DNA of 64,000 nucleotides, taken from positions 43,582-107,581 of the IMG/VR virus record IMGVR_UViG_3300045988_115450; one strand, given 5' to 3'. The translations under genes and the position numbers were made by a program. This document shows, in pieces, positions 2,718-43,775 of the stretch (positions within the stretch are counted from its first letter, which is position 1; each line of letters begins with the position of its first letter). This DNA comes from a virus. The notes below the pieces were generated by a model that did not search any database, was not told the DNA's origin, and saw nothing but the letters and a program-made list of their open reading frames with translations.

Positions 2718-4125
2718 TGCTCTTATTCTCCTTTATCCATTTAATTGCGTCGATGTAATTAACTACTCGCCCATCCGGCAACTCCAATACTACAGCGCCT
2801 TTTCTCAACAACTCTTCAAGGAATGATCTCAATACGACAGTATCACTAAGATTCAGATTCCCGCTTTCGGCGCACGTCGTGTCTACCGTATAAACGTAGT
2901 CACATTTGTCGCAAGATTTCTCTAGCGCCTGTTGCCAGCTCCCCATGCAACCATATTTATCAAGGTGTGTGTTGGGGAGATAGCTGTTGTATTCACAGCC
3001 ATACCCATATGCCTTGATGGGTAGTACCATTCCTCCGAAAGAAAGTCTCCATGCGGAACACATTCTTACTTTGATATTAGAGTCAATGAAAATCCCTGTC
3101 ATTAACTTTTTAGTATCACTTTCTGTCAGGCCCACATACGAAGACCGCGTATAAAAAATCGACGACCGATTGTTGATGTACTCTCTCGCAATCTCTGGAT
3201 CAAACAGTGTCATATAACCAGTTACAACATATACGATATTCCCATCTTTGTCACCGCTCTCAACGGACACATTTTTGTTCGACAAAAAATAATCCATTAA
3301 CTCGTTCTTGCTTTCAACATTACTGTTGTCAATTGCTTCCACCAACAAAGACCAACCTTCGTATTCTCTATACCAATCTCTCAAATCGGACATCAATTTA
3401 TTGATCTGACTTCTTGCACTCTCCATCTTCTTTGCGTATCTTTCCCTCTGTACGTTCCTTAGCTTTCCCTCATAGCCATAAAGGTAATATCTCTTTTTAG
3501 CTGAGGCCACGTCCACAGCAGCGGCAACCATATCGTTCATCGCTTTACAGATTACACTCATGCCGGAGTCTTCTTTAGACAGAATCTTAATAAACTTTGA
3601 CTCCGCTTCAGTCCTGTCTTTAATGTACCATGGGCAGAATACATTGAAAAGACACACTAGGTAATGCCACGAGCCATAGTTATCCACGTTGGTAAGGACA
3701 ACCGTACTCTTCCTCTCTTCATTACTGAAAATTCTCAGTATGATACCGAGTCGTTCTTTCATTAGATTCAGCTCTCTTGCCGTCTTCTCTTTCCAACTGC
3801 TCGCACATTTCATATTACTGACTAAAGTTTCTACGGCCTTAACCTTATCACACACGCAAAATGTAATCGTGTTGTCTTGAGAAGTTACCTCCGAAAAACG
3901 CTCTTTGTCTTTTATCCACGTAATCCAATCAGCACAATTAGGATCTACCACTCTAACCATGATACGCACGTCCGCCGGAACTCTTGGCTTCAAAAACAAC
4001 CGAGCCATTGCCAACGCAAAGTCATCGCCTTTGAACGTCCCGTCACCAGCAATATTAGAAAACTCAGACTCCAGCTCTGGGGCCAGCACTAAAACTTCAC
4101 TGCGTTTCAAACAATTTGAAAACAT
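2710..4125 (-). CDS. Large cassette protein, function unknown (C-terminal Cys-rich region with an LPNTHLDKYGC motif)
   Basis: Long ORF. Start set at MFSNCLKR with RBS AAAGGAGAAG. Translationally coupled to the JAB gene. Confidence 0.7.
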   Translation of the reverse strand: MFSNCLKRSEVLVLAPELESEFSNIAGDGTFKGDDFALAMARLFLKPRVPADVRIMVRVVDPNCADWITWIKDKERFSEVTSQDNTITFCVCDKVKAVETLVSNMKCASSWKEKTARELNLMKERLGIILRIFSNEERKSTVVLTNVDNYGSWHYLVCLFNVFCPWYIKDRTEAESKFIKILSKEDSGMSVICKAMNDMVAAAVDVASAKKRYYLYGYEGKLRNVQRERYAKKMESARSQINKLMSDLRDWYREYEGWSLLVEAIDNSNVESKNELMDYFLSNKNVSVESGDKDGNIVYVVTGYMTLFDPEIAREYINNRSSIFYTRSSYVGLTESDTKKLMTGIFIDSNIKVRMCSAWRLSFGGMVLPIKAYGYGCEYNSYLPNTHLDKYGCMGSWQQALEKSCDKCDYVYTVDTTCAESGNLNLSDTVVLRSFLEELLRKGAVVLELPDGRVVNYIDAIKWIKENKSNE

Positions 4126-13350: not shown

Positions 13351-13394
13351 ATTTGTTCCTCCATTTCTAATCAAAACCACTAGTAAACTAGTGG

Positions 13395-14105
13395 TTTGCA
13401 CAGACCCTAGAAGGGTCATTACAGGCAGAGCCCCTAAAGGGGCATTGAAAAGTTTGACACCGCATTACCATTACAGGCCGCCGCTAAAGCGGCCTGTTTT
13501 TATGCCTTCCTATTCTTGCTACCCGTAAACGGGTCAATGTATTCTTTCATCGTAATCTGATCCATCATTTCATCTTCAATCAACTGATTGCGGATATACT
13601 CTTCGATCACCCGCTTGTTCTTCCCTACCGTATCTACATAATAACCACGGCACCAGAAATGTCGGCTGCCATACTTGTATTTCAGATTTGCGTGGCGATC
13701 AAAAATCATCAGTGTGCTTTTTCCCTTGAGAAACCCCATAAACTGTGATACACTCAAATGCGGAGGCATACTCACCAACATATGCACATGGTCAATGCAC
13801 GTTTCTGCTTCAATAATCTCCACTTTCTTTTCGTCGCACAACTTCCTCAAAATCTTCCCAATATCCGCCCGCAATTCTCCATAGATTGCCTTACGACGAA
13901 ATTTCGGTGCAAATACCAGATGATACTGACATCTCCATGTCGTGTGTGCTCCATGGTGCAAGTCATTCTTTCCCATATCTATAACCTCCTTTTTGTTTCT
14001 TGGTAATGCGGTCGCCAAACCTTTACCATCTTACACTAGGAGGTTATTCTTTTCTACTTTTACTGAAGTTTTTCCCACCCCCAGTAGAACTGGGGGTTTT
14101 TTCAT
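13395..14105 (-). mobile_element. IS200/IS605-family insertion sequence (IS200 type, tnpA only); ends approximate
   Basis: Y1/HUH transposase gene flanked by subterminal hairpins: GACCCT..AGGGTC, GCCCCT..AGGGGC and AGGCCGC..GCGGCCT on one side, CCCCCAGT..ACTGGGGG on the other. Confidence 0.6.
13500..13976 (-). CDS. tnpA: IS200-family Y1 (HUH) transposase TnpA
   Basis: WRCQYHLVFAPKFRRK, DHVHMLVS (HUH) and WCRGYYVDTVG (catalytic Tyr). Start at MGKNDL with RBS AGGAGG. Confidence 0.85.
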   Translation of the reverse strand: MGKNDLHHGAHTTWRCQYHLVFAPKFRRKAIYGELRADIGKILRKLCDEKKVEIIEAETCIDHVHMLVSMPPHLSVSQFMGFLKGKSTLMIFDRHANLKYKYGSRHFWCRGYYVDTVGKNKRVIEEYIRNQLIEDEMMDQITMKEYIDPFTGSKNRKA

Positions 14106-14121
14106 GCTAAAGCGCCAACGA

Positions 14122-14154
14122 CAATAAAAACGCCCGCTAAGTAATAGCGGGCGT
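14122..14154 (-). terminator. Rho-independent terminator
   Basis: ACGCCCGCT..AGCGGGCGT followed by TTTTTATT in minus sense. Confidence 0.65.
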
Positions 14155-15157: not shown

Positions 15158-16144
15158 TTACAGATTAAACGCTTCTTTGTAAACCTTATACATCTTTATA
15201 GCGTTGTAATACCCTTTTTTCTGACGGAATACATCTTCCACCAGCGACTGATTCGTGTGATCAAAAACATCTACACCAGACTGTTCAATTCTGTACAGCT
15301 CGTGATACCGCCCAGACCGCCAAACATTTTGATACGTATGGCGGCGTGGGTAGCCTAGCGCTTGGTATTTTTTAGCCATTCTGCTGCATTGGTTGTTGAC
15401 TGCTGCTAGAGAATATTCTTTCCCAAACTCCTCTATTCCAACCAAAACCATTCGCTTTAAGAACGAGCCTACAGATGTGTCTTTTACCGCTTGGACCGTT
15501 CCAGAACCTTTCGTTCTAACAGAGTACTTACACGCACAATATCTTTTCAAAGTATCACAGACAGTATCAGAAAACCCGCTTGTGAGGATAGAACCATCTT
15601 GACCGTAGATAATCCTATCGTCTAAATCCACATCGTTATCTCTTAGGGCGATAATTTCTACATTATTCAATCCAATCCAGTTCAAGCAAAAAACAGGATA
15701 CTCTATATACCCTGCATCAATAGGAAGCACTTTTTTAATAGACTCCACTAAGTCAATATCGTCTTTGAATAGAGACTGCTCTAGCGGTTCTATTAACCGG
15801 ATGTCTTCTGGAGACACTTCGAAGATCCCGTCTGACACATTTACAAAAACCTTGTTTTTCTTGCACCATTTTGAATACTGTCTTAACATGCTAATAGCAC
15901 TTTTTACGGTCGCAGATTCTGCTATTCCCATAGCATGAACAGCTGCGACGCAATGGCCTTGATCCATCTGCGCAATATCTAACCTGCATTCTTCTTCATA
16001 ACTAGCTATTTTGTTAAAAACCCACGTGATAGAAGATTTCTTAGTATACCCCATCTCCTTGCAAAATCCCATTTTAACATCCTCGTTATACAAGATACCA
16101 CCACCTTTTAGGCAATGATACCATGTATAATCAAAATCCGTCAA
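15158..16144 (-). CDS. Hypothetical protein (possibly a degenerate recombinase-like fold)
   Basis: 328 aa ORF. No intact catalytic motif seen. Confidence 0.6.
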   Translation of the reverse strand: MTDFDYTWYHCLKGGGILYNEDVKMGFCKEMGYTKKSSITWVFNKIASYEEECRLDIAQMDQGHCVAAVHAMGIAESATVKSAISMLRQYSKWCKKNKVFVNVSDGIFEVSPEDIRLIEPLEQSLFKDDIDLVESIKKVLPIDAGYIEYPVFCLNWIGLNNVEIIALRDNDVDLDDRIIYGQDGSILTSGFSDTVCDTLKRYCACKYSVRTKGSGTVQAVKDTSVGSFLKRMVLVGIEEFGKEYSLAAVNNQCSRMAKKYQALGYPRRHTYQNVWRSGRYHELYRIEQSGVDVFDHTNQSLVEDVFRQKKGYYNAIKMYKVYKEAFNL

Positions 16145-16357: not shown

Positions 16358-16526
16358 ACAGCGTCCTACCTTTCCGCTACCCTAGCAAGCTGCTGCTAGG
16401 GTAGCTTTTTTTTGCAGGCATAGACAGAATCCACCTATGTTATCCCTGCGACCTCGCAGGCCAGGGCGATCCCAGCCTACGAACGCTCCCGGCCTAACGC
16501 CTGTTTATAGTCGCCGGGACGACTCT

Positions 16527-17743: not shown

Positions 17744-17833
17744 GATATTTTCCTCCTGTGTAGTTATGTAAATGTGTTTCAAAAACAAATCAGAGCGGCG
17801 GGTAAGGTATCGGCTCTTCATCAAGCTGGCTTC

Positions 17834-18097
17834 TCACATATCGGCGGCACAGGAGCACACATTTTCATCATGGACATACAGCCAGAGTTCGTAGCCATTC
17901 AACTCCCAGCCTTCTACCACATACGTATACGGGTCAATACTGATATATGGCGCGATATACTCCGGACTACCACTTTCAACGTCTTTCAACTTCCCGGCCA
18001 TGTAAATTTCGCCTGTTAACGATTCCATAACAAGAATGTTCATTTCGCCGTCACGACGATTAGCTGCACAAAATTGTCCCACGTTCATCTCTTTCAT
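17834..18097 (-). CDS. Hypothetical protein
   Basis: Start at MKEMNVGQF with RBS AAAGGA. Confidence 0.55.
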   Translation of the reverse strand: MKEMNVGQFCAANRRDGEMNILVMESLTGEIYMAGKLKDVESGSPEYIAPYISIDPYTYVVEGWELNGYELWLYVHDENVCSCAADM

Positions 18098-19558
18098 GTT
18101 TCCACGTCCTTTTCTTGATATTGGCGTTCCCGCCGGTCTGATTTGTTTTTGATTTTTTAGCTTTATCGCTACCATAGAAAAATAAACGTATCCCGTTGCC
18201 TGGAATGTCGTTTACAATGCAAACGCACCATAACAACGGGATACGTGAAATTTCCATTGATACATTTTTCCGTTTCAACCTTCAAGTCAACCTAGCAATG
18301 GTTTTTCACGTGGCGAGCCACGCAACCTTGAAGAATTTTTGGGGACATCTTTCCGCTCCGGATAACAACAGAATCGCTACTTCTGTTATATCCATCATAA
18401 CATAGCGTGACACGGCACTTCCTGGAACGCCCCATCCACCGGTTCCCGGCGCTATCACACAAAAATAGCGCTCCCTTCGGACGTTTGACAAGTCACGATT
18501 GAAAGATAGTTACTACCCTATCCTTTGCTATCAAATCGAGCTTGCCAGGCCAGTCAACTATCACAGAATGTAAAAAACTGTGTAGTACCACGTGTTCCCA
18601 CGTGGGGTTTGCACCCTAGACACGACTACCCCTATTCGCTATCATACATACGCTTTTTTGACTTTTGGGCGACACTCACTCTAGCGATAGAGCGTCGTCA
18701 TAGCTTTTGTACAAATCACCTATCGGCATTTTGTACCAGCAGTCAATCAACGCAGTGTGTAGACTGTCATTGTAACGCTGTTTTCTCGGTAACACCTGGC
18801 TTGTGTCCCAGGGAGGTTTCCGATTGTCCAGCTACTTCCATGGAGTTTCGGTTTTTTAGCTTTATCGCTACTACCCAAAACTTTCCGCCCTTTCGAGCTG
18901 TCCCTATCCTATCACATCGACCCGCCCTTGTCAAGGGGTTTTTGCGATTTTCTAGGGATTTTTTTTGCCTGGCTTTCGCTACTGGAGCAAGGCCGCCGGG
19001 CTGGCCTGGTTTACGTCATACAATCAGGTTAGGACATAACCGGCGACTGTCACTTTTCGCCGTCCGTCCGGTTTGTGCCCGTCCCTTGACTGTGCCTTGA
19101 GTATACCATACATGGACATGGTTTGTCAACCCCTTTTTTGCATTTTTTTATTTTTTGGGTAGAAGGTGTTATTGAGACTCATTCCTATTATTGATTCGGG
19201 CCAGGCAAGCTAATGACCATTAGCTGTTTTAGACTGCGTTCTAGACTGTAGTCTATTATAATACCTAACACTGTTAATTACTAACGTCCCATTTCCCGCC
19301 TATGAGGTGTACAGGGGGGCAATTTCCATATTTTCAGATTGATTTTTATATATAATATGGAATTAGTTACTCCACCATTTCACAACTTTTTCTCGCCAAA
19401 ACTCACCGCCTCCATCCATAACACATTGATTATCAGAACTTTTTATTTCACTTTATTTGGTTAAAGTTTCCTCTTCGTTTCTCCAGTCTCTGATTTTGGG
19501 ACGTAATCAGTAGCTCATAAATTTTGGAAAATTTCTTGGAATCTGCCGTCCAAAAATC

Positions 19559-19587
19559 TTGACATTTGAAAACATTTTCGCTATAAT
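19559..19587 (+). promoter_or_regulatory. Consensus sigma70 promoter for the rightward arm
   Basis: TTGACA (19559-19564), 17 nt spacer, TATAAT (19582-19587). Confidence 0.75.
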
Positions 19588-19637
19588 AGTAACATAATCA
19601 ATAGAAAACATTTCAAATTTAAAAGGAGGTTTTGCCA

Positions 19638-20528
19638 ATGAGCAACCTAATTTCTTTCCCCAACGGTACTGTCAATCCCGCCAGCAAAACTGTCAACCCC
19701 GCGTCCATCGACGTCAACTCTGTCCGCCGCTCACGGACTGCCGACAGTAGCCGTTCACGGGTACTCAAGCAGTCCGCTGCCAGCCGGATCACCGCTCAGA
19801 GCGACCAGCCGGTAGAGGTCATCACCGCACCTGACCGAGCGGCTGACCCTATTAAGAGTGTTGACGACATTCGTAAAGCGTGTTCCTACCTACTGGACAG
19901 CCATCGCTACAGAGACCACATGCTGCTGGTTATGGGTATCAATTTCGGCCTGCGAGTCAGTGACCTGCAGCGTCTCCGGTTCACCCACATCCTGAACGAG
20001 GACTTCTCCTTTAAAGAATCCTTTGAGATCCTGGAAAAGAAAACTGCCTCCACCCGTAAAAGAAAAAAGAACCGCTACGTTGTCATCAACGACGCGGTCA
20101 TGGACGCTGTGGAACTCTACCTGGAACACGCTCCCTACCCCGTCAGCCTGTCTGACCTCGTGTTCCGTTCTGAGAGCAATAACCGTGGTGCTTACGAGCC
20201 TGGTCCTCTCAACAGAAGATCCGTCAATCGTATCCTAGAAGATATCGCCGACCACTGCAATTTCGATTTCCGGTTCTCCTCTCATTCCCTCCGCAAGACA
20301 TTCGGCTACCACCAAATGATGATGTCCGGCAACGATCCTCGCAAGCTGGTACTCCTCCAGAAGATGTTCGGCCACTCCTCCATGAACGAGACCCTCTGCT
20401 ATATCGGCCTCACCAAGGAAGAGATGACCGAAGCCTACGCCAATCTGAACCTGGGTGGCAACGGATACGACTACCAGCTCGCTGCTCTGTACGAAGCACC
20501 TGCTGATTCAACCCCCGCCGCCATTTGA
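19638..20528 (+). CDS. Tyrosine recombinase/integrase 1
   Basis: GLRVSDL (Arg), HSLRKTF (HxxR), GHSSMNETLCY (His..Tyr). ATG at 19638 lies 8 nt after AGGAGG. The N-terminus is low-complexity. Confidence 0.8.
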   Translation: MSNLISFPNGTVNPASKTVNPASIDVNSVRRSRTADSSRSRVLKQSAASRITAQSDQPVEVITAPDRAADPIKSVDDIRKACSYLLDSHRYRDHMLLVMGINFGLRVSDLQRLRFTHILNEDFSFKESFEILEKKTASTRKRKKNRYVVINDAVMDAVELYLEHAPYPVSLSDLVFRSESNNRGAYEPGPLNRRSVNRILEDIADHCNFDFRFSSHSLRKTFGYHQMMMSGNDPRKLVLLQKMFGHSSMNETLCYIGLTKEEMTEAYANLNLGGNGYDYQLAALYEAPADSTPAAI

Positions 20529-20690
20529 CTTCTAAGGTCTATTTTCTCCCTGTAGTCCCACGAAAAATCAGAGAGATAATCTGTTGGGTATGTAGGTATA
20601 TACCCCTGACCGTTCCGTTCTATTTTCTCTGCGTAGTGTGGGAGAAAACATGATAGGTAAGTTCAACCGTCTAGTTTCCCTCTTACGGAA

Positions 20691-20729
20691 GGCCGCTGCA
20701 GCGGCATCTTGTAGGTCGCTGCGCTCCCG
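20691..20729. repeat. Inverted repeat A, left arm
   Basis: TAGGTCGCTGCGCTCCCG (20712-20729) is the perfect reverse complement of 21222-21239. The adjacent GGCCGCTGCAGCGGC palindrome is also shared. Confidence 0.8.
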
Positions 20730-20858
20730 GAATCGCTCCCGCTCTTTCCGTAGAGAGAAAAGGTGGTGTTCCATCCACCAGCACTACTTGACCCTAAACG
20801 TTCTATTCCCTGCCCGATAGTTCTTCTACGCTATTTCTTTTTTTTTAATTTAAATATC

Positions 20859-20875
20859 GTAAGGTAGTCCGTGGC
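20859..20875. repeat. Inverted repeat B, left arm
   Basis: GTAAGGTAGTCCGTGGC is the perfect reverse complement of 21622-21638. Confidence 0.8.
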
Positions 20876-21221
20876 TACACGGCTTCCCACCCTAGCTACT
20901 CCCGTAACCAACACCCCTTCTCATTCCATTTCTTTCTACGGGCTAAAAAAAATGAATCCTCACGCGAAGCGTTACAAGTCCCGCCTCCTGTCGCAGAACA
21001 GCTCTTCCCCTCAACCATCCACATCGGCTCCGTCCTGCCAACCCTCTTCGCTGATCTCCCACTCCTGCCGCCCTCACGCTTTCTTTTGTAGAAAGCTCCA
21101 ATCTTTCCTGCGAGAAGGTCATGGCCGGGAAGCCTGACCATCATTCCGTTACGCCGTCCCCACCAACAGGAAAAGTTCTTCTACTCCATTTTTCTTGTAC
21201 GGGCTAAAGATAAAAAATCTT

Positions 21222-21261
21222 CGGGAGCGCAGCGACCTAACAAGCCGCCGCTGCAGCGGCC
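21222..21261. repeat. Inverted repeat A, right arm
   Basis: CGGGAGCGCAGCGACCTA plus the GCCGCTGCAGCGGC palindrome. Confidence 0.8.
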
Positions 21262-21621
21262 ATACACAGGATGGAGATATGACGGTCTGCTACCTTCCGA
21301 AACCTAGCTCACCTCTGGCGAACAACATAGCGCTCCCCACATCCACCATGCACCACGCCCTTACCCACTCTTCCCTCTACGGATCACTTTTCCTTCTACC
21401 TGCTAACCTACATTCTTTCGCCCCCTACCATCTCGCGTTCATCCCGGCGCAGCCCTACCCACCACCAGCGTTACAGAACTACTACCCACACAAGCAAGAC
21501 AGCTCATCTCACTTTTCTCTCTACGGACTACGCCGCAGGCGTACCTTTCCTTTTCCCTTCTACGGACTTACCTACTTCTCCAGGCCGGGGCGAAGAGATA
21601 GGACGGCTGATCTACTGACAC

Positions 21622-21638
21622 GCCACGGACTACCTTAC
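21622..21638. repeat. Inverted repeat B, right arm
   Basis: GCCACGGACTACCTTAC. Confidence 0.8.
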
Positions 21639-22070
21639 AAGAGATAGAGGTGTGACGGAGAGAATTACTATATATATGTATATATAGATATAAGATATAA
21701 TACAAGTGTCTCAACAGCTAAAAAGTGTTGATATACCAACACAAAATCACAATCCGCTCTTTCTGTCTAAGTACGCCTATTTTTCTGCCAAAGTACGCCT
21801 ACCTGGTAAAGTGAACGTATTTTGTTAATAGTTTGTTCACAATTAAATATTGAGCTTCAGGCCACAGGCATCTAAAGAAGCGCAGAATTTCAAGGATATG
21901 GAAGTGGCATAGCGTATCGCGGACAAGATAGCAGAGTGTGTCCGAAAATCTATTTGTTAACAATTCGTTCATGTATGTTCATAATTTATTCACAATTGTT
22001 CATAGTCGCCCAGTATATTTTTTATCAGAATATTTCGAGTTGGATTTCGCACGAGTTCCACTCTATCCCC

Positions 22071-22099
22071 TTGACGTTTGAAAGAAAAACTTGTATATT
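22071..22099 (+). promoter_or_regulatory. Sigma70-type promoter
   Basis: TTGACG-17 nt-TATATT. It shares the extended TTGACRTTTGAAA motif with the promoters at 19559 and 9836. Confidence 0.65.
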
Positions 22100-22345
22100 A
22101 TAATCAGGCGGCAAGGCCGCGGCAACAAAATTTTTATAAGGAGGTAGCACACTATAGATAAACGCTACGAATCAATTGAACGAGGTCCAGACAACACCTT
22201 CGGTATTTTTAGACGCGGGCATGGCTTTCGCCCTCTACGCCCAGACGAAGAAATCAAAGTAGTCCAGAGGCGGGGAGAGCGAGGCGTTGATGTCTTTAGA
22301 GCGAATGCTCGTGTCCGATCTGACGAACAGTTCATATTTTTAAGG

Positions 22346-23056
22346 TTGCCGAAACAAGCTGGGGAATGTTTCTGCCCGGACATCACCTTGGTAAACTTAG
22401 CTAGGGTCGCTATGCTGGCGACGCACATGCAGTATTCAGAGAACCCGATGCAAGATGGAAGTGTGGTGATGGCTGGCCGCACGAGAGCGCAGCACCCAAT
22501 GTCAAAGAGTGAGGCCCAAGATATCTTACAGATTGGGAAAGACGCCTTTTACAAATTTTTAGACGATATGGAACGGGCGCGTCTGGTGGACGAAAGCGCC
22601 CAGGGAGGCTTAATCTTGAGTAACTGGTTGTTCGCTAAGGGCAGGCTACCGAGGCAGAAAAGGTACGCTGCCCCAACCGCACGACTGTCTGTGCCAAAAT
22701 ATCAAAGACTATATACGGACAACGTGAAGAGCGCAAAAGAGATCGGCACCGTACTTCGACTGATCCCATTTATACATAAGAGCGAGCACGTGTTGTGCTG
22801 GAATCCGTACGAAGAAAATCTAGACTTGATCGCGCCGCTCACATTTACGGATGTCTGCCGAGTGCTGGGCAGAAGCACCAATAATGTTGATAAGTACAGG
22901 AAGCGATTTGAAAAAAATATGTCTAGCATGGCGGTTCGGGACGGACAATCGACACAATCTCTGTGTACGGTAGACAACTATCATGAAGGGCGGTATGCCA
23001 TTTTTATAAACGCGGGACTTGTCTACTTCAAAGAGTTGATGCCCCTATGTCAGTAA
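22346..23056 (+). CDS. Winged-helix DNA-binding protein, candidate replication initiator/regulator (paralogue A). The frame is open back to 22148.
   Basis: C-terminal region VLRLIPFIHKSEHVLCWNPYEENLDLIAPLTFTDVCRVLGRS aligns with the next gene. The first canonical start is TTG at 22346. Confidence 0.6.
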   Translation: MPKQAGECFCPDITLVNLARVAMLATHMQYSENPMQDGSVVMAGRTRAQHPMSKSEAQDILQIGKDAFYKFLDDMERARLVDESAQGGLILSNWLFAKGRLPRQKRYAAPTARLSVPKYQRLYTDNVKSAKEIGTVLRLIPFIHKSEHVLCWNPYEENLDLIAPLTFTDVCRVLGRSTNNVDKYRKRFEKNMSSMAVRDGQSTQSLCTVDNYHEGRYAIFINAGLVYFKELMPLCQ

Positions 23057-24081
23057 CTAAAATAGTAGCAATGCTGTCCGGCTGTGATACGTCTGATATT
23101 CAGTATGGCGAGGACGTACTGTCCAGCAACTTGGTGTTTCCTCCTAGCGCCGCTTATGACCTCCAGGGCTTCTGCGCTGGCGTTAGGCTGGATACCCTGC
23201 CCAGGCTTGTGGCTTTGTCACTCCACACTATCCCGGTGATAGAAATAGATTTCAGTAAGGGTGACAGCGGCGATAGTAGTCCTGATGGCGATAGCGACAT
23301 AGACGGCAGCGACAGCGACGACAGCTTTGATCTAGACGCTTTTGACACGACCGAGACCGAAGATAATCATTGGCATGTGATTCTTTCTAGTAGCACGCAC
23401 TCTCCTCAGATGGCTACTAGAACCGAGATCGGAGAGATTGCTATGCTTGATAAGAGTAGTTTAGATAATTTATTTTTAAAATGTGTTCCCTTAAATATAC
23501 TTCGACCAGACTGGTTTGGTCATTGGTATATAAACGATAATTTCTTTCTACGTGGAACTAAGCCAACAAGCGGGTCGTGGCAATATGTTAAGGTTCGAAA
23601 AGTTAAAAAAGACACCTTCCTCCAGCTTTATAAAAAAGGAACCGGCAATTTAAAATACATAGGAGCTGTGCTGAGGCTAACACCAAACCTTAATTGTGAA
23701 CACAACTACCTCTGTTACAACCCAGATGAAACACGTAGCGATGAGATTGTCCCCTTAGCCGCCCAAGATATCTGCAGGGTGTTAGGTTACGAGCCGCGCC
23801 GGGCTTCCTACTACATAGACAAACTCAAGGAAAAATTTTTAGGGATCACTTTTAAGCACGATGGCATAGAGCAACAGCTCTGCCGAATTGACAAAGATGG
23901 GAGCGACTACATAATGATGGTAAACCCCAACGTCATCTACGCCGACGGCCCGCCAGAGTACAAACGGATCTGCCTGGAGCTGTACTGGGGTTACCCGGAC
24001 CCGTTCGGCTCTCCGTTCCGACGGTATCCCTATCATCATATAAAAGGCCCGACACTAGACTACGTAAATAGAGTAAACTGA
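23047..24081 (+). CDS. Winged-helix protein paralogue B with an Asp/Ser-rich acidic linker
   Basis: AVLRLTPNLNCEHNYLCYNPDETRSDEIVPLAAQDICRVLGYE parallels paralogue A. Contains GDSGDSSPDGDSDIDGSDSDDS. Confidence 0.7.
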   Translation: MSVTKIVAMLSGCDTSDIQYGEDVLSSNLVFPPSAAYDLQGFCAGVRLDTLPRLVALSLHTIPVIEIDFSKGDSGDSSPDGDSDIDGSDSDDSFDLDAFDTTETEDNHWHVILSSSTHSPQMATRTEIGEIAMLDKSSLDNLFLKCVPLNILRPDWFGHWYINDNFFLRGTKPTSGSWQYVKVRKVKKDTFLQLYKKGTGNLKYIGAVLRLTPNLNCEHNYLCYNPDETRSDEIVPLAAQDICRVLGYEPRRASYYIDKLKEKFLGITFKHDGIEQQLCRIDKDGSDYIMMVNPNVIYADGPPEYKRICLELYWGYPDPFGSPFRRYPYHHIKGPTLDYVNRVN

Positions 24082-24174
24082 ACGGGTATATGTCTATATA
24101 CCCTACGGATTGTCTCCCTCGTTTTCCTACAGCCACACAGGGGCTTTTACACTAAACTGACCACTTGATAGGAG

Positions 24175-31282: not shown

Positions 31283-32308
31283 ATGCCACGTAAGACAAAG
31301 TATAACAATATCACTAGCCCTGCGCTTTTAGAGCAGGTTAACCCAGAAAATAAAAGATTGAAGAACGATTTCCTTACTTATCTAAAATCAGTACAAAGAA
31401 GTAATGGAACAATTGATGGGTACTCCCACGACCTCGACATCTTCTTTGTATGGAATCTGCAGAACAACAATAATAAATTCTTTGTTGACTTATCAAAGCG
31501 TGACCTGATCTCATATCAGAACTGGCTTATCTACGAGAACGAAAACTCCCCCGCAAGAGTCAGACGTCTAAAGGCCGCCCTTTCTTCCCTATCCAATTAC
31601 GTAGAGAATATTTTGGACGACGAGTATGAAGGATATCGTCCAATCGTGAGGAAGATCGAGTCCCCAATCAATCAGCCGGTTAGAGAGAAAACAGTGTTCT
31701 CTGATGAGCAGTTGCAGTCGCTGCTAGATATTCTGGTTAAAGAAGAGAGGTTTACTCAAGCGTGCGCACTGTCACTTGCTATGTGCAGCGGAAGAAGAAA
31801 GTCGGAGCTGTTACGTTTTAAGGTAGACTGGTTCACAAGCGACAACATTATTTACGGGTCGCTATATAAGACTCCGGAGAAGGTAAAAACAAAAGGTGCT
31901 GGCAACGGTAAATATCTTTATTGTTACACCCTCTCAAAAGAGTTCGACCCTTACTTAGACCTCTATATGAATTGGAGAAAAGAAAATAACGTGGAGAGCG
32001 AATGGTTGTTTTATGACAAAGCAGATCCCACGAAACAAATGAATATTTCTACGCTGAACAGCTGGGCTGTTCGGTTTAGCAAAATATTGGGCGTGCCGTT
32101 CTATTGGCACGCCTTACGTCATTTCTTCACCACAAAGTTAGCACGGCTTGGTCTGCCGGATAGTGTTGTGCAGACTGTTATCGGCTGGAGTTCCGCCGAT
32201 ATGGTTCGGCTGTATGACGACACTCCTGATGACGAACAGTTGGAAAAGTATTTTGGTGAAGATGGAATTAAAACAGATGTTAAGGCAACTGGACTAGCTG
32301 ACCTGTAA
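31283..32308 (+). CDS. Tyrosine recombinase 2 (XerC/D-like)
   Basis: SGRRKSEL (Arg), WHALRHFF (HxxR), GWSSADMVRLY (Tyr), with a SAM-like N-terminal domain. Confidence 0.8.
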   Translation: MPRKTKYNNITSPALLEQVNPENKRLKNDFLTYLKSVQRSNGTIDGYSHDLDIFFVWNLQNNNNKFFVDLSKRDLISYQNWLIYENENSPARVRRLKAALSSLSNYVENILDDEYEGYRPIVRKIESPINQPVREKTVFSDEQLQSLLDILVKEERFTQACALSLAMCSGRRKSELLRFKVDWFTSDNIIYGSLYKTPEKVKTKGAGNGKYLYCYTLSKEFDPYLDLYMNWRKENNVESEWLFYDKADPTKQMNISTLNSWAVRFSKILGVPFYWHALRHFFTTKLARLGLPDSVVQTVIGWSSADMVRLYDDTPDDEQLEKYFGEDGIKTDVKATGLADL

Positions 32309-43033: not shown

Positions 43034-43775
43034 TTCCTTTACAAAACTGGAGCTGAACTATACAGGATCTTTGCCGGTAAAAGGGGTTGGTCACATACGC
43101 TGCCCTACTACCAATGAGATCGTGGAGGCTGGCGGTGAGGACGTATACAACTGGCGAATCGGTATGCTTTTATATACGAAGTCTCAACTAGCAGATAACT
43201 TAAACATAGAGTTAACACCGGATGTCGTAGAAGAGTTAAACTCCACTCCCCTCTTTTTGTTCTTAGTTGCGCAACAAGATTTTCGTAATGCAATTACAGA
43301 AGCGTTGTCATTCTTTCTAGATGAACGTCTTGTGTTTGATGAGCCGTCGGCGTCTTTTCTGACGTTACGTCCAGGCGTAGATGATATTGTCGGGAATATC
43401 AATTGCAGCAACTATGAGCAGGTGCGAGATTTAATTTTGCAACGTAATTATATGTCTCCTCCAAAAGAAGGGGTTGTTAAAAAGAAGAGTAAGAAAGAGC
43501 TAGAACGTGAAGCAAAGATAGCGGCAGGTAGAAAGAGATCCAAGAAATATAAGGACAGGCAGGATGCTATGCGGCTAGACAACGTTACATCTAAGTTAGC
43601 AGCAAGATCACACTCGATGAACATTCAAGACGTTTACAACTTAACAGTGTATCAACTGTACGATCAATTTAATGAAATCAACATGTCCCTACAGATTGAC
43701 ACCATCCTTACGCGCTGGAGCGTATGGGGCAAAGATGACTTTGACTTCTCTGTTTGGTGTCGCCCGAATGAGTGA
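43026..43775 (+). CDS. Structural protein, unknown role
   Basis: 249 aa ORF. Confidence 0.55.
   Translation: MVDSFTKLELNYTGSLPVKGVGHIRCPTTNEIVEAGGEDVYNWRIGMLLYTKSQLADNLNIELTPDVVEELNSTPLFLFLVAQQDFRNAITEALSFFLDERLVFDEPSASFLTLRPGVDDIVGNINCSNYEQVRDLILQRNYMSPPKEGVVKKKSKKELEREAKIAAGRKRSKKYKDRQDAMRLDNVTSKLAARSHSMNIQDVYNLTVYQLYDQFNEINMSLQIDTILTRWSVWGKDDFDFSVWCRPNE

Follow-up and report, generated by a model that had tools for sequence, protein, structure and literature searches.

A conserved non-coding element between a tyrosine recombinase gene and an origin-like region of a human-gut phage most likely folds as a single strand, probably RNA

We analysed a 64,000-nucleotide (nt) stretch of viral DNA (positions 43,582 to 107,581 of IMG/VR record IMGVR_UViG_3300045988_115450; hereafter the window) from a phage of ~106 kb in human-gut metagenomes, whose related contigs measure 106-109 kb. 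Directly downstream of a tyrosine recombinase gene, and ending at an origin-like region, the window carries a conserved non-coding element (Table 1) that, judged from comparison with its relatives, is most likely a single-stranded fold, probably of RNA, and not an integration site, an iteron array or a DNA-flipping switch. Its long-range inverted repeats and its small local hairpins have both been kept paired by changes on the two sides. Compensatory change in local hairpins is not produced by site-specific recombination or by protein sites on double-stranded DNA, and therefore points to single-strand folding; the long-range pairs were assigned to the same fold because of parsimony. A sequence-only reading of this region had proposed an attP region, an invertible switch, Rep iterons or a pseudoknotted RNA, an interpretation that our analysis partly supported.

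Inverted repeats, motif array and hairpins of the element

The sequence-only reading had described about 1.1 kb without credible genes after the recombinase gene, and we found the same: no gene was called between 20528 and 22412, and indels among close relatives were mostly of 1, 2 or 7 nt, that is, not multiples of three. A coding role was rejected on these two grounds. The two inverted repeats that it had reported, inverted repeat A (IR-A, 18 nt) and IR-B (17 nt), were each 100% complementary, and together with the flanking copies of the 14-nt palindrome GCCGCTGCAGCGGC and the C-rich, G-poor top strand they lay where it had placed them, far beyond chance. The arms of each repeat have two sites in the whole window even when 3 mismatches are allowed, with chance expectations of 0.07 for IR-A and 0.01 for IR-B, and perfect inverted repeats of at least 14 nt (gap 150-1300 nt) were absent downstream of the gene in all 76 loci taken as controls from the wider recombinase family. 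A third perfect pair, of 16 nt, matches 20747-20762 in a minus-oriented motif copy to 21512-21527 in a plus-oriented one. The interleaving claimed for IR-A and IR-B was confirmed and extends to this pair, as all three mutually cross. IR-A is enclosed by a longer imperfect repeat (47 nt at 74%), with arms of ~115 nt by duplex folding; its perfect 18-nt form is peculiar to this genome, since 9 of 10 close relatives carry C at a central position that would need G for pairing.

Scoring with a weight matrix gave seven strong copies of the repeated motif, six on the plus strand (20927, 21188, 21368, 21387, 21512 and 21551) and one on the minus strand (20746), at irregular spacings of 19 to 261 nt. 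The arms of IR-B are half-copies of the motif, and about three weak copies lie at 20538, 20619 and 20671. The earlier count of at least ten copies holds only if such degenerate copies are included. Likewise, the description of most copies as facing one way with two inverted was borne out for the six strong plus copies and for the minus copy at 20746, whereas the second inverted site, at 20860, is an IR-B half-copy. No copy of comparable score occurred elsewhere in the window, and the control rate was 0.033 hits per kb per strand. An exact motif search of IMG/VR returned four close genomes and chance single matches, nothing more, and a pattern search with the right-end block gave five chance matches only. 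A minus-oriented motif-like sequence, TTCTTTTTTCTTTTACGGGTGGAG (score 18.7), is found at 20048 (-) inside the recombinase open reading frame (ORF), at the same place in all close relatives.

The local hairpins of the element are capped by GAA, GCA, GTA or GTAA loops (GNA or GNRA type) on the recombinase-sense strand only. The GC skew of the top strand falls as low as -0.58 (21300-21499).

Table 1. Positions of the element, its parts and its neighbours in the window
Feature	Position	Strand	Remarks
Sigma-70 consensus promoter of the recombinase gene	19559-19587	+	TTGACA-17-TATAAT, then AAAGGAGG, with ATG at 19638
Tyrosine recombinase gene	19638-20528	+	296 amino acids; catalytic domain at ~residues 66-285 behind a variable basic disordered tail
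Conserved non-coding element, whole	20529-21656	+	C-rich, G-poor top strand; homology ends at 21656/21657
Hairpin GGGTAT-GTAGGTAT-ATACCC	20586-20605	+	read from the sequence; stem pairs kept in 10 genomes
Extended IR-A left arm	20652-20767	+	weak motif copy, palindrome 20692-20705, core 20712-20729, minus motif copy 20746-20762
IR-B left arm GTAAGGTAGTCCGTGGC	20859-20875	+	invariant in 10 close genomes
Motif copy 1, CATTTCTTTCTACGGGC	20927-20943	+	followed by an A-run; same spacing to IR-B and the GAA hairpin in L050 and L051
Hairpin ACGC-GAA-GCGT	20962-20972	+	two compensatory pairs in the L051 counterpart
Extended IR-A right arm	21183-21298	+	motif copy 21188-21204, core 21222-21239, palindrome 21247-21260
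Two adjacent motif copies	21368-21403	+	21368-21384 and 21387-21403 (TACCTGCT variant)
Best motif copy CTTTTCTCTCTACGGAC	21512-21528	+	perfect 16-nt complement of 20747-20762
Hairpin TACGCC-GCA-GGCGTA	21529-21543	+	directly 3' of a motif copy; a different hairpin at the same place in L050
Motif copy TTTTCCCTTCTACGGAC	21551-21567	+	
IR-B right arm GCCACGGACTACCTTAC	21622-21638	+	inside a ~60-nt block (ACGGCTGAT ... ATAGAGGTGTG) conserved in three lineages and ending the element
Origin-like region (neighbour, not part of the element)	21657-22130		AT-rich 21660-21700; 22-bp tandem repeats 21760-21801; TGTTCA-type repeats 21821-22004; promoter 22071-22099

Constraint and compensatory change in five lineages

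The element is non-coding and under purifying constraint. Ten unique close genomes aligned over its whole length at 88-96% identity, and its pairwise diversity was 0.08, about half of the 0.15-0.20 obtained for third codon positions in the recombinase gene and in two genes nearby. The arms of IR-B, the motif cores and several other blocks were invariant in the ten genomes, and the stretches 20729-20928 and 21529-21628 evolved near-neutrally. Small ORFs behind Shine-Dalgarno-like purine tracts on the minus strand were discarded as tiny and, by eye, not conserved, as were three ATCCAC matches to DnaA boxes noted by eye, which were not conserved in the alignment.

A search with the recombinase protein returned 2,067 homologues at E <= 1e-20 (relative loci are labelled L001, L002, L004, L050, L051-54, L059-61, L066-L141 and L146). 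The element was found in five lineages: the window group (14 contigs), L050, L051-54, L059-61 and L146. The relatives with a diverged element were L050 (76% identity), L051 (72%), L059 (64%) and L146 (59%); other relatives, at 48-63% identity, lacked it, having no skew, no array and no long repeats, and the 76 loci of the wider recombinase family showed neither the skew nor a plus-oriented array nor other features of the element. In all five lineages it lies 3' of a tyrosine recombinase without a core-binding domain and ends at an origin-like AT-rich/iteron region, with a sense-strand C>G skew of -0.25 to -0.33 and plus-oriented motif arrays. No further lineages with the element came out of IMG/VR searches that started from P0011 and P0004. 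We also considered whether an arginine-rich N-terminal tail of the recombinase goes with presence of the element and rejected this, as basic tails also occur in relatives without it.

In the three lineages aligned (window group, L050 and L051), the landmarks follow one order (IR-B left arm, motif 1, A-run, GAA hairpin, CGTTACGCCGT block, motif 2, TACCTGCT copy, IR-B right arm, ATAGAGGTGTG) and keep their spacing within ~20%. IR-B was perfect in all three while two of its central pairs varied (GT/AC, TC/GA and GG/CC): its arms read GTAAGGTAGTCCGTGGC and GCCACGGACTACCTTAC in the window, 746 nt apart, GTAAGGTATCCCGTGGC and GCCACGGGATACCTTAC in L050, 754 nt apart, and GTAAGGTAGGCCGTGGC and GCCACGGCCTACCTTAC in L051, 780 nt apart. 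The IR-A core of L051, TAAGTCGCTACGCTCCT paired with AGGAGCGCAGCGACTTA, carries two double changes and a central mismatch at the same position as in the close relatives of the window. A single perfect 18-nt pair, TAGGAACTTAGAAGACGC, encloses 514 nt in L059, starting 10 nt after the stop codon and ending at the origin-like region; in the homologous pair of L146, A:T has been exchanged for T:A, and there are also a mismatch and a bulge.

Two local hairpins were changed on both sides in L051, where ACGC-GAA-GCGT has become GGGC-GAA-GCCC and ACGCC-GCA-GGCGT has become CCGCC-GTA-GGCGG. By eye, the left-arm palindrome GCCGCTGCAGCGGC corresponds to GGGCGCTGATACGCCC in L051, and in a third local stem, outside the formal count, stem and loop have both changed, from GCCGC-TGCA-GCGGC to GGGCG-CTGATA-CGCCC. 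For a formal count of covariation, IR-A, IR-B and the two small hairpins were stitched into one alignment of 45 pairs. In this alignment 97.5% of the cells were paired and 7 of the 45 pairs were changed on both sides, a number that none of 500 shuffles reached, and slid registers gave 0-1.

Readings of the element and the strand that folds

Our preferred reading, which we hold tentatively, is that the element is a structured sense-strand RNA of ~1.1 kb (~0.55 kb in L059) that continues the recombinase transcript and displays the repeated pyrimidine-rich motif. Sense-strand RNA was favoured because of the covariation of the hairpins, the GNA/GNRA loops confined to the sense strand, the promoter upstream of the gene and the lack of a convincing internal promoter or terminator. 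Strong promoters precede the recombinase gene at the same place in L050, L051 and L059, every lineage scanned; inside the element the scanned lineages held no convincing sigma-70 promoter, the one weak match, 9 of 12, being in L050. No convincing plus-strand terminator was seen in the element or between gene and element, and a terminator-like hairpin on the minus strand (21742-21725) would stop leftward transcription from the origin side. In control lineages a terminator directly followed the gene in 8 of 45, too few for the contrast to discriminate.

We propose that transcription from the recombinase promoter would run past the stop codon, as no convincing terminator follows the gene, and give a 3' extension of ~1.1 kb. 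In this extension the long-range helices (IR-A and IR-B, or the positionally similar 18-nt pair of the sister lineages) would clamp a largely unstructured, C/U-rich and G-poor interior, which together with the small GNA/GNRA-capped hairpins would display three to seven same-sense copies of a ~20-nt motif, a pyrimidine tract followed by UACGG(G/A)CU. Such an arrangement could be a multi-site platform for a single-stranded-RNA-binding protein with the motif as its candidate site, and possible binders are Rho, another host factor or the basic tail of the recombinase itself; Rho is a candidate on account of the composition, which is that of a Rho loading region. Binding might decide what becomes of the recombinase transcript and how much of the transcription continues into the origin that would start one base after the element. 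We infer, in this proposal, the choice of RNA over DNA as the folding strand, the motif as a protein-binding site and the regulatory outcome.

Several observations weigh against an RNA. Duplex energies and the balance of G:U to A:C favour neither strand, and the long-range cores are strictly Watson-Crick and sharp-edged, as would be at least equally expected of DNA pairing or of matched recombination sites. Except in IR-A, no fold better than that of shuffled sequence was obtained (z from -3 to +1.2), and few pairs are open to an RNA so poor in G. It is unusual for one RNA that its long-range pairs (IR-A, IR-B and the 16-nt pair) cross, a T/C-rich tail on the hairpin at 21529-21543 might end some transcripts before the right arm of IR-B, and L050 is without the right arm of IR-A. 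Covariation comes from five lineages and so rests on few independent events, and RNAalifold found almost none within the ten close genomes, the five-sequence diverged alignment being noisy on either strand. Rfam 15, at gathering and permissive settings, gave no match to the element, either in the window (E up to 10) or in L050, L051, L059 and L146 (E up to 1).

The element resembles the large phage-associated RNAs ROOL and GOLLD, the multi-site sponge RNAs CsrB/RsmZ and CrcZ, and the ColE1 RNA II pre-primer in being long and non-coding, with covarying helices and repeated short motifs, and in being phage-borne, conserved and placed just upstream of a replication origin. It differs in that its RNA status is predicted, in being G-poor and mostly unstructured rather than ornate, in its ~20-nt pyrimidine-rich motif and in lacking a covariance-model match to any of the described families searched (ROOL, GOLLD, OLE, group I and II introns and others). 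Of the interpretations offered by the sequence-only reading, the pseudoknotted RNA gained support from the compensatory changes that have preserved both the interleaved repeats and the local hairpins; the choice of RNA over DNA is the part of it that is inferred.

An unlikely but serious alternative is that the top strand, when exposed as a displaced strand or lagging-strand template, forms these hairpins and long-range stems as single-stranded DNA, at the adjoining origin or during recombination, where it might act as a priming or primosome-assembly signal, as a fork barrier, or as a folded duplex site for the recombinase in the manner of integron attC and CTX-phage attP. The covariation supports this as well as it supports RNA, and strictly Watson-Crick cores are what DNA pairing predicts. 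The motif array is polar and the element adjoins an AT-rich/iteron region in every lineage, and DNA mini-hairpins with a GCGAAGC heptamer or with C-GNA-G loops, both of which occur here, are reported to be unusually stable. As in attC and the CTX-phage site, structure is conserved over sequence, the inverted arms covary and a Xer/IntI-like recombinase is associated. However, the loops of 490-780 nt are far above those of known single-strand initiation signals or attC sites, the loops of attC and of the CTX-phage site spanning tens of nt; there are no R/L boxes, and the recombinase scored 18.9 bits against a cut-off of 265 with the integron-integrase model, so that it is not an integron integrase. 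No GTTRRRY-type box was seen on reading the sequence, and for a leftward fork from the origin the top strand would be the leading-strand template and not exposed. The phage has a double-stranded DNA genome of ~106 kb with no sign of a single-stranded stage. Moreover, the element travels with the recombinase gene and not with the adjoining rep/origin cassette: in L002 and L004 the origin region is replaced by TGTCAAC repeats and a different allele of the winged helix-turn-helix-like family phrog_9501, and the motif array is unchanged.

We regard as doubtful a recombinase-driven, strongly biased inversion on the arms of IR-A, IR-B and the 16-nt pair (nested or interleaved invertons, or a shufflon-like switch), in which a minimal, FimB/FimE-like recombinase would flip a strand-asymmetric segment between its own gene and the origin. 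Perfect inverted repeats of 16-18 nt around 490-750 bp lie directly beside the gene, their cores are sharp-edged and strictly Watson-Crick, and the conserved flanks and matched variable centre of IR-B fit a site whose overlap must be identical in both partners. The fimS switch with FimB/FimE and the RecV-type switches of Clostridioides difficile likewise pair a small tyrosine recombinase lacking a core-binding domain with an adjoining segment, a few hundred bp long between inverted repeats, into which the recombinase transcript would read; in the fim system, orientation governs the fate of the fimE transcript reading into the switch. Unlike in those switches, the order and orientation of the element were the same in 23 of 23 contigs from the five lineages, giving no positive evidence for the several configurations that had been suggested, and no sigma-70 promoter was found inside it, although its strand composition and motif orientation are strongly asymmetric. 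The central mismatch of IR-A, seen in L051 as well as in 9 of 10 close genomes, falls at the very position at which strand exchange would require identical partners, and the L146 pair has a mismatch and a bulge. Three crossing pairs of different sequence are present rather than one repeat family, and such repeats are absent from the wider recombinase family. Inversion also leaves the compensatory changes in the local hairpins unexplained. The R64 shufflon (Rci recombinase, sfx repeats) shares with the element several inverted repeats of 17-19 nt in a short region by a tyrosine recombinase; however, it consists of many copies of one repeat family that permute coding segments, whereas in the element each repeat has two copies and is unrelated in sequence to the others, ORFs are absent and no permuted order was seen. 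The junctions that inversion would create were predicted as AAATATCGTAAGGTAGTCCGTGGCGTGTCAGTAGA and CATCTTGTAGGTCGCTGCGCTCCCGAAGATTTTTT, and, for IR-B, as AAATATC-GTAAGGTAGTCCGTGGC-GTGTCAGTAGA on the left and AAGCCGTGTA-GCCACGGACTACCTTAC-AAGAGATAG on the right; for IR-A they are CATCTTG-TAGGTCGCTGCGCTCCCG-AAGATTTTTT on the left and GGAGCGATTC-CGGGAGCGCAGCGACCTA-ACAAGCC on the right.

It is improbable that the element is a double-stranded recombination site (for attachment, dimer resolution or circularisation) whose motif copies bind the recombinase or accessory proteins. The element adjoins the recombinase gene and is inherited with it, its oriented ~20-nt repeats resemble arm-type or accessory sites, as in a lambda-type attP immediately 3' of a phage 'integrase' gene, and a phage with origin-rep modules would benefit from multimer resolution. 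However, matches of the recombinase in Pfam (PF00589 over residues 77-263), to the XerC/XerD/XerA models (catalytic part only) and to PDB profiles (the catalytic domain of Xer-like chains) included no core-binding or arm-binding domain, the ~65 N-terminal residues being variable and basic. At 1.1 kb, the element exceeds known attP or resolution sites two- to fourfold in size, and no dyad-symmetric core site or attB was found. All contigs are colinear through the region, and no integrated copy, prophage or junction appeared in any contig or in 185,579 species genomes, which yielded one partial match of 63% in a Clostridia metagenome-assembled genome. The attP with arm-type sites that had been suggested is unlikely because of the missing arm-binding domain, dyad core site, integrated copy and junction; such a site would also leave the hairpin and long-range covariation and the strand asymmetry unexplained.

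More of a long shot is that the element is the nucleic-acid partner of the recombinase, an RNA or folded strand supplying the recognition or synapsis that normally comes from a core-binding domain, by a logic comparable to that of the bridge and seek RNAs of IS110-type recombinases; the enzyme would then rely on a structured nucleic-acid cofactor specified by the DNA right behind its own gene. We consider it very improbable that the element is a passive remnant of one or more small non-autonomous mobile elements with terminal inverted repeats. The perfect repeats do start with TARG in several lineages, coding capacity is absent and an IS200-type transposase lies elsewhere in the window; however, the element is single-copy and syntenic in five lineages, absent from unrelated genomic positions and under purifying constraint, no target-site duplications were seen on reading the flanks of IR-B in the window and of the L059 pair, and repeats kept by compensatory change in place are not expected of a dead element. 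Least probable is an iteron or copy-control array for the neighbouring initiator, as the Rep iterons of the sequence-only reading would require: the ~20-nt repeats do stand beside an origin-like region, but they are irregularly spaced, and the rep-specific repeats lie downstream (21657-22130) and swap together with the initiator while the array does not, so that the motif array is not the Rep iteron set and its function is independent of initiator type.

Because compensatory evolution holds its long-range complementarity, this 1-kb stretch in a group of common human-gut phages does real work, and no RNA family, attachment site, inverton or iteron array so far described matches it. No similar sequence was found by blastn in phage and plasmid collections, and searches of the literature on RNA-guided tyrosine recombinases and phage invertons found no description of a comparable element. 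The parts (covarying helices, oriented repeats, a neighbouring recombinase) are familiar, unlike their combination and its constant position, with a recombinase lacking a core-binding domain on one side and an origin on the other. If it is RNA, the element would add a new member of unusual design to the large non-coding RNAs of phages: a clamped, G-poor array of repeated motifs, standing between recombinase gene and origin, that would tie together recombinase expression, transcription read-through and origin function. Were it a DNA substrate, it would reveal by what means sites are found by a tyrosine recombinase that has no core-binding domain. In both cases, IR-B, the motif and the GNA hairpins are precise, testable sites for a large uncharacterised recombinase family.

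Genome context and neighbouring modules

Genes to the left of 18.2 kb run leftward and those to the right of 22.4 kb run rightward, and the interval between holds the recombinase gene, ~3.3 kb without called genes and nothing else. The expression signals of the recombinase gene are of Firmicutes type, combining the perfect promoter with the AAAGGAGG ribosome-binding site, and an identical copy of the protein is encoded on ENA human-gut contigs. Six catalytic residues (R106, K135, H216, R219, H246 and Y255) are invariant in the recombinase family.

The region past 21657 looks as origins with initiator-specific iterons usually do, and the minimum of the cumulative GC skew falls near 21800. The exchanged cassette spans 21657-24081 in the window, 2123-3455 in L002 and 8014-9348 in L004, between otherwise near-identical phages, and both alleles share the promoter block (22053-22121) and a TTGATATATCAA-like palindrome. 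At its right edge (24083-24140) stands a hairpin-plus-motif block, GGGTATATGTCTATATACCC TACGGATT ... TTTTCCTACAG, that resembles 20586-20650 and is conserved in L002 and L004; its first part (24083-24112) is a hairpin like that at 20586-20605, plus TACGGATT.

Upstream of the recombinase gene, 18176-19637 adds ~1.4 kb without called genes, of which the right-hand 750 nt (from ~18888) are conserved with the recombinase-element module and the DNA to the left varies between relatives. A 24-nt inverted repeat (96%; 17779-17802 and 18129-18152) flanks the small ORF 17834-18175, and the start region of this ORF recurs 700 nt rightward in gene-free DNA as a 35-nt direct repeat, 83% identical (18147-18181 and 18846-18880).

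A second tyrosine recombinase, with an MrpR-like N-terminal domain, is encoded at 15158-16144 (-), and a syntenic Pistol self-cleaving ribozyme lies just upstream of it, at 16447-16524 (-) in the window (63.9 bits) and 3476-3545 (-) in L050 (72.3 bits). The IS200/IS605-type transposase has its TnpA ORF at 13500-14018 (-; NCBIfam E = 2.9e-44) within 13370-14122, and this ~750-bp stretch is absent from the close relative L001 and looks like a recent insertion. A third tyrosine recombinase (31283-32308, +; 341 amino acids; phrog_1 integrase) is the most integrase-like of the three. In the wider family of the first recombinase, about 40 of the 76 IMG/VR contigs stop 0.4-2.3 kb upstream of the gene, always on its 5' side, which suggests a genome terminus or a systematic assembly break beside it.

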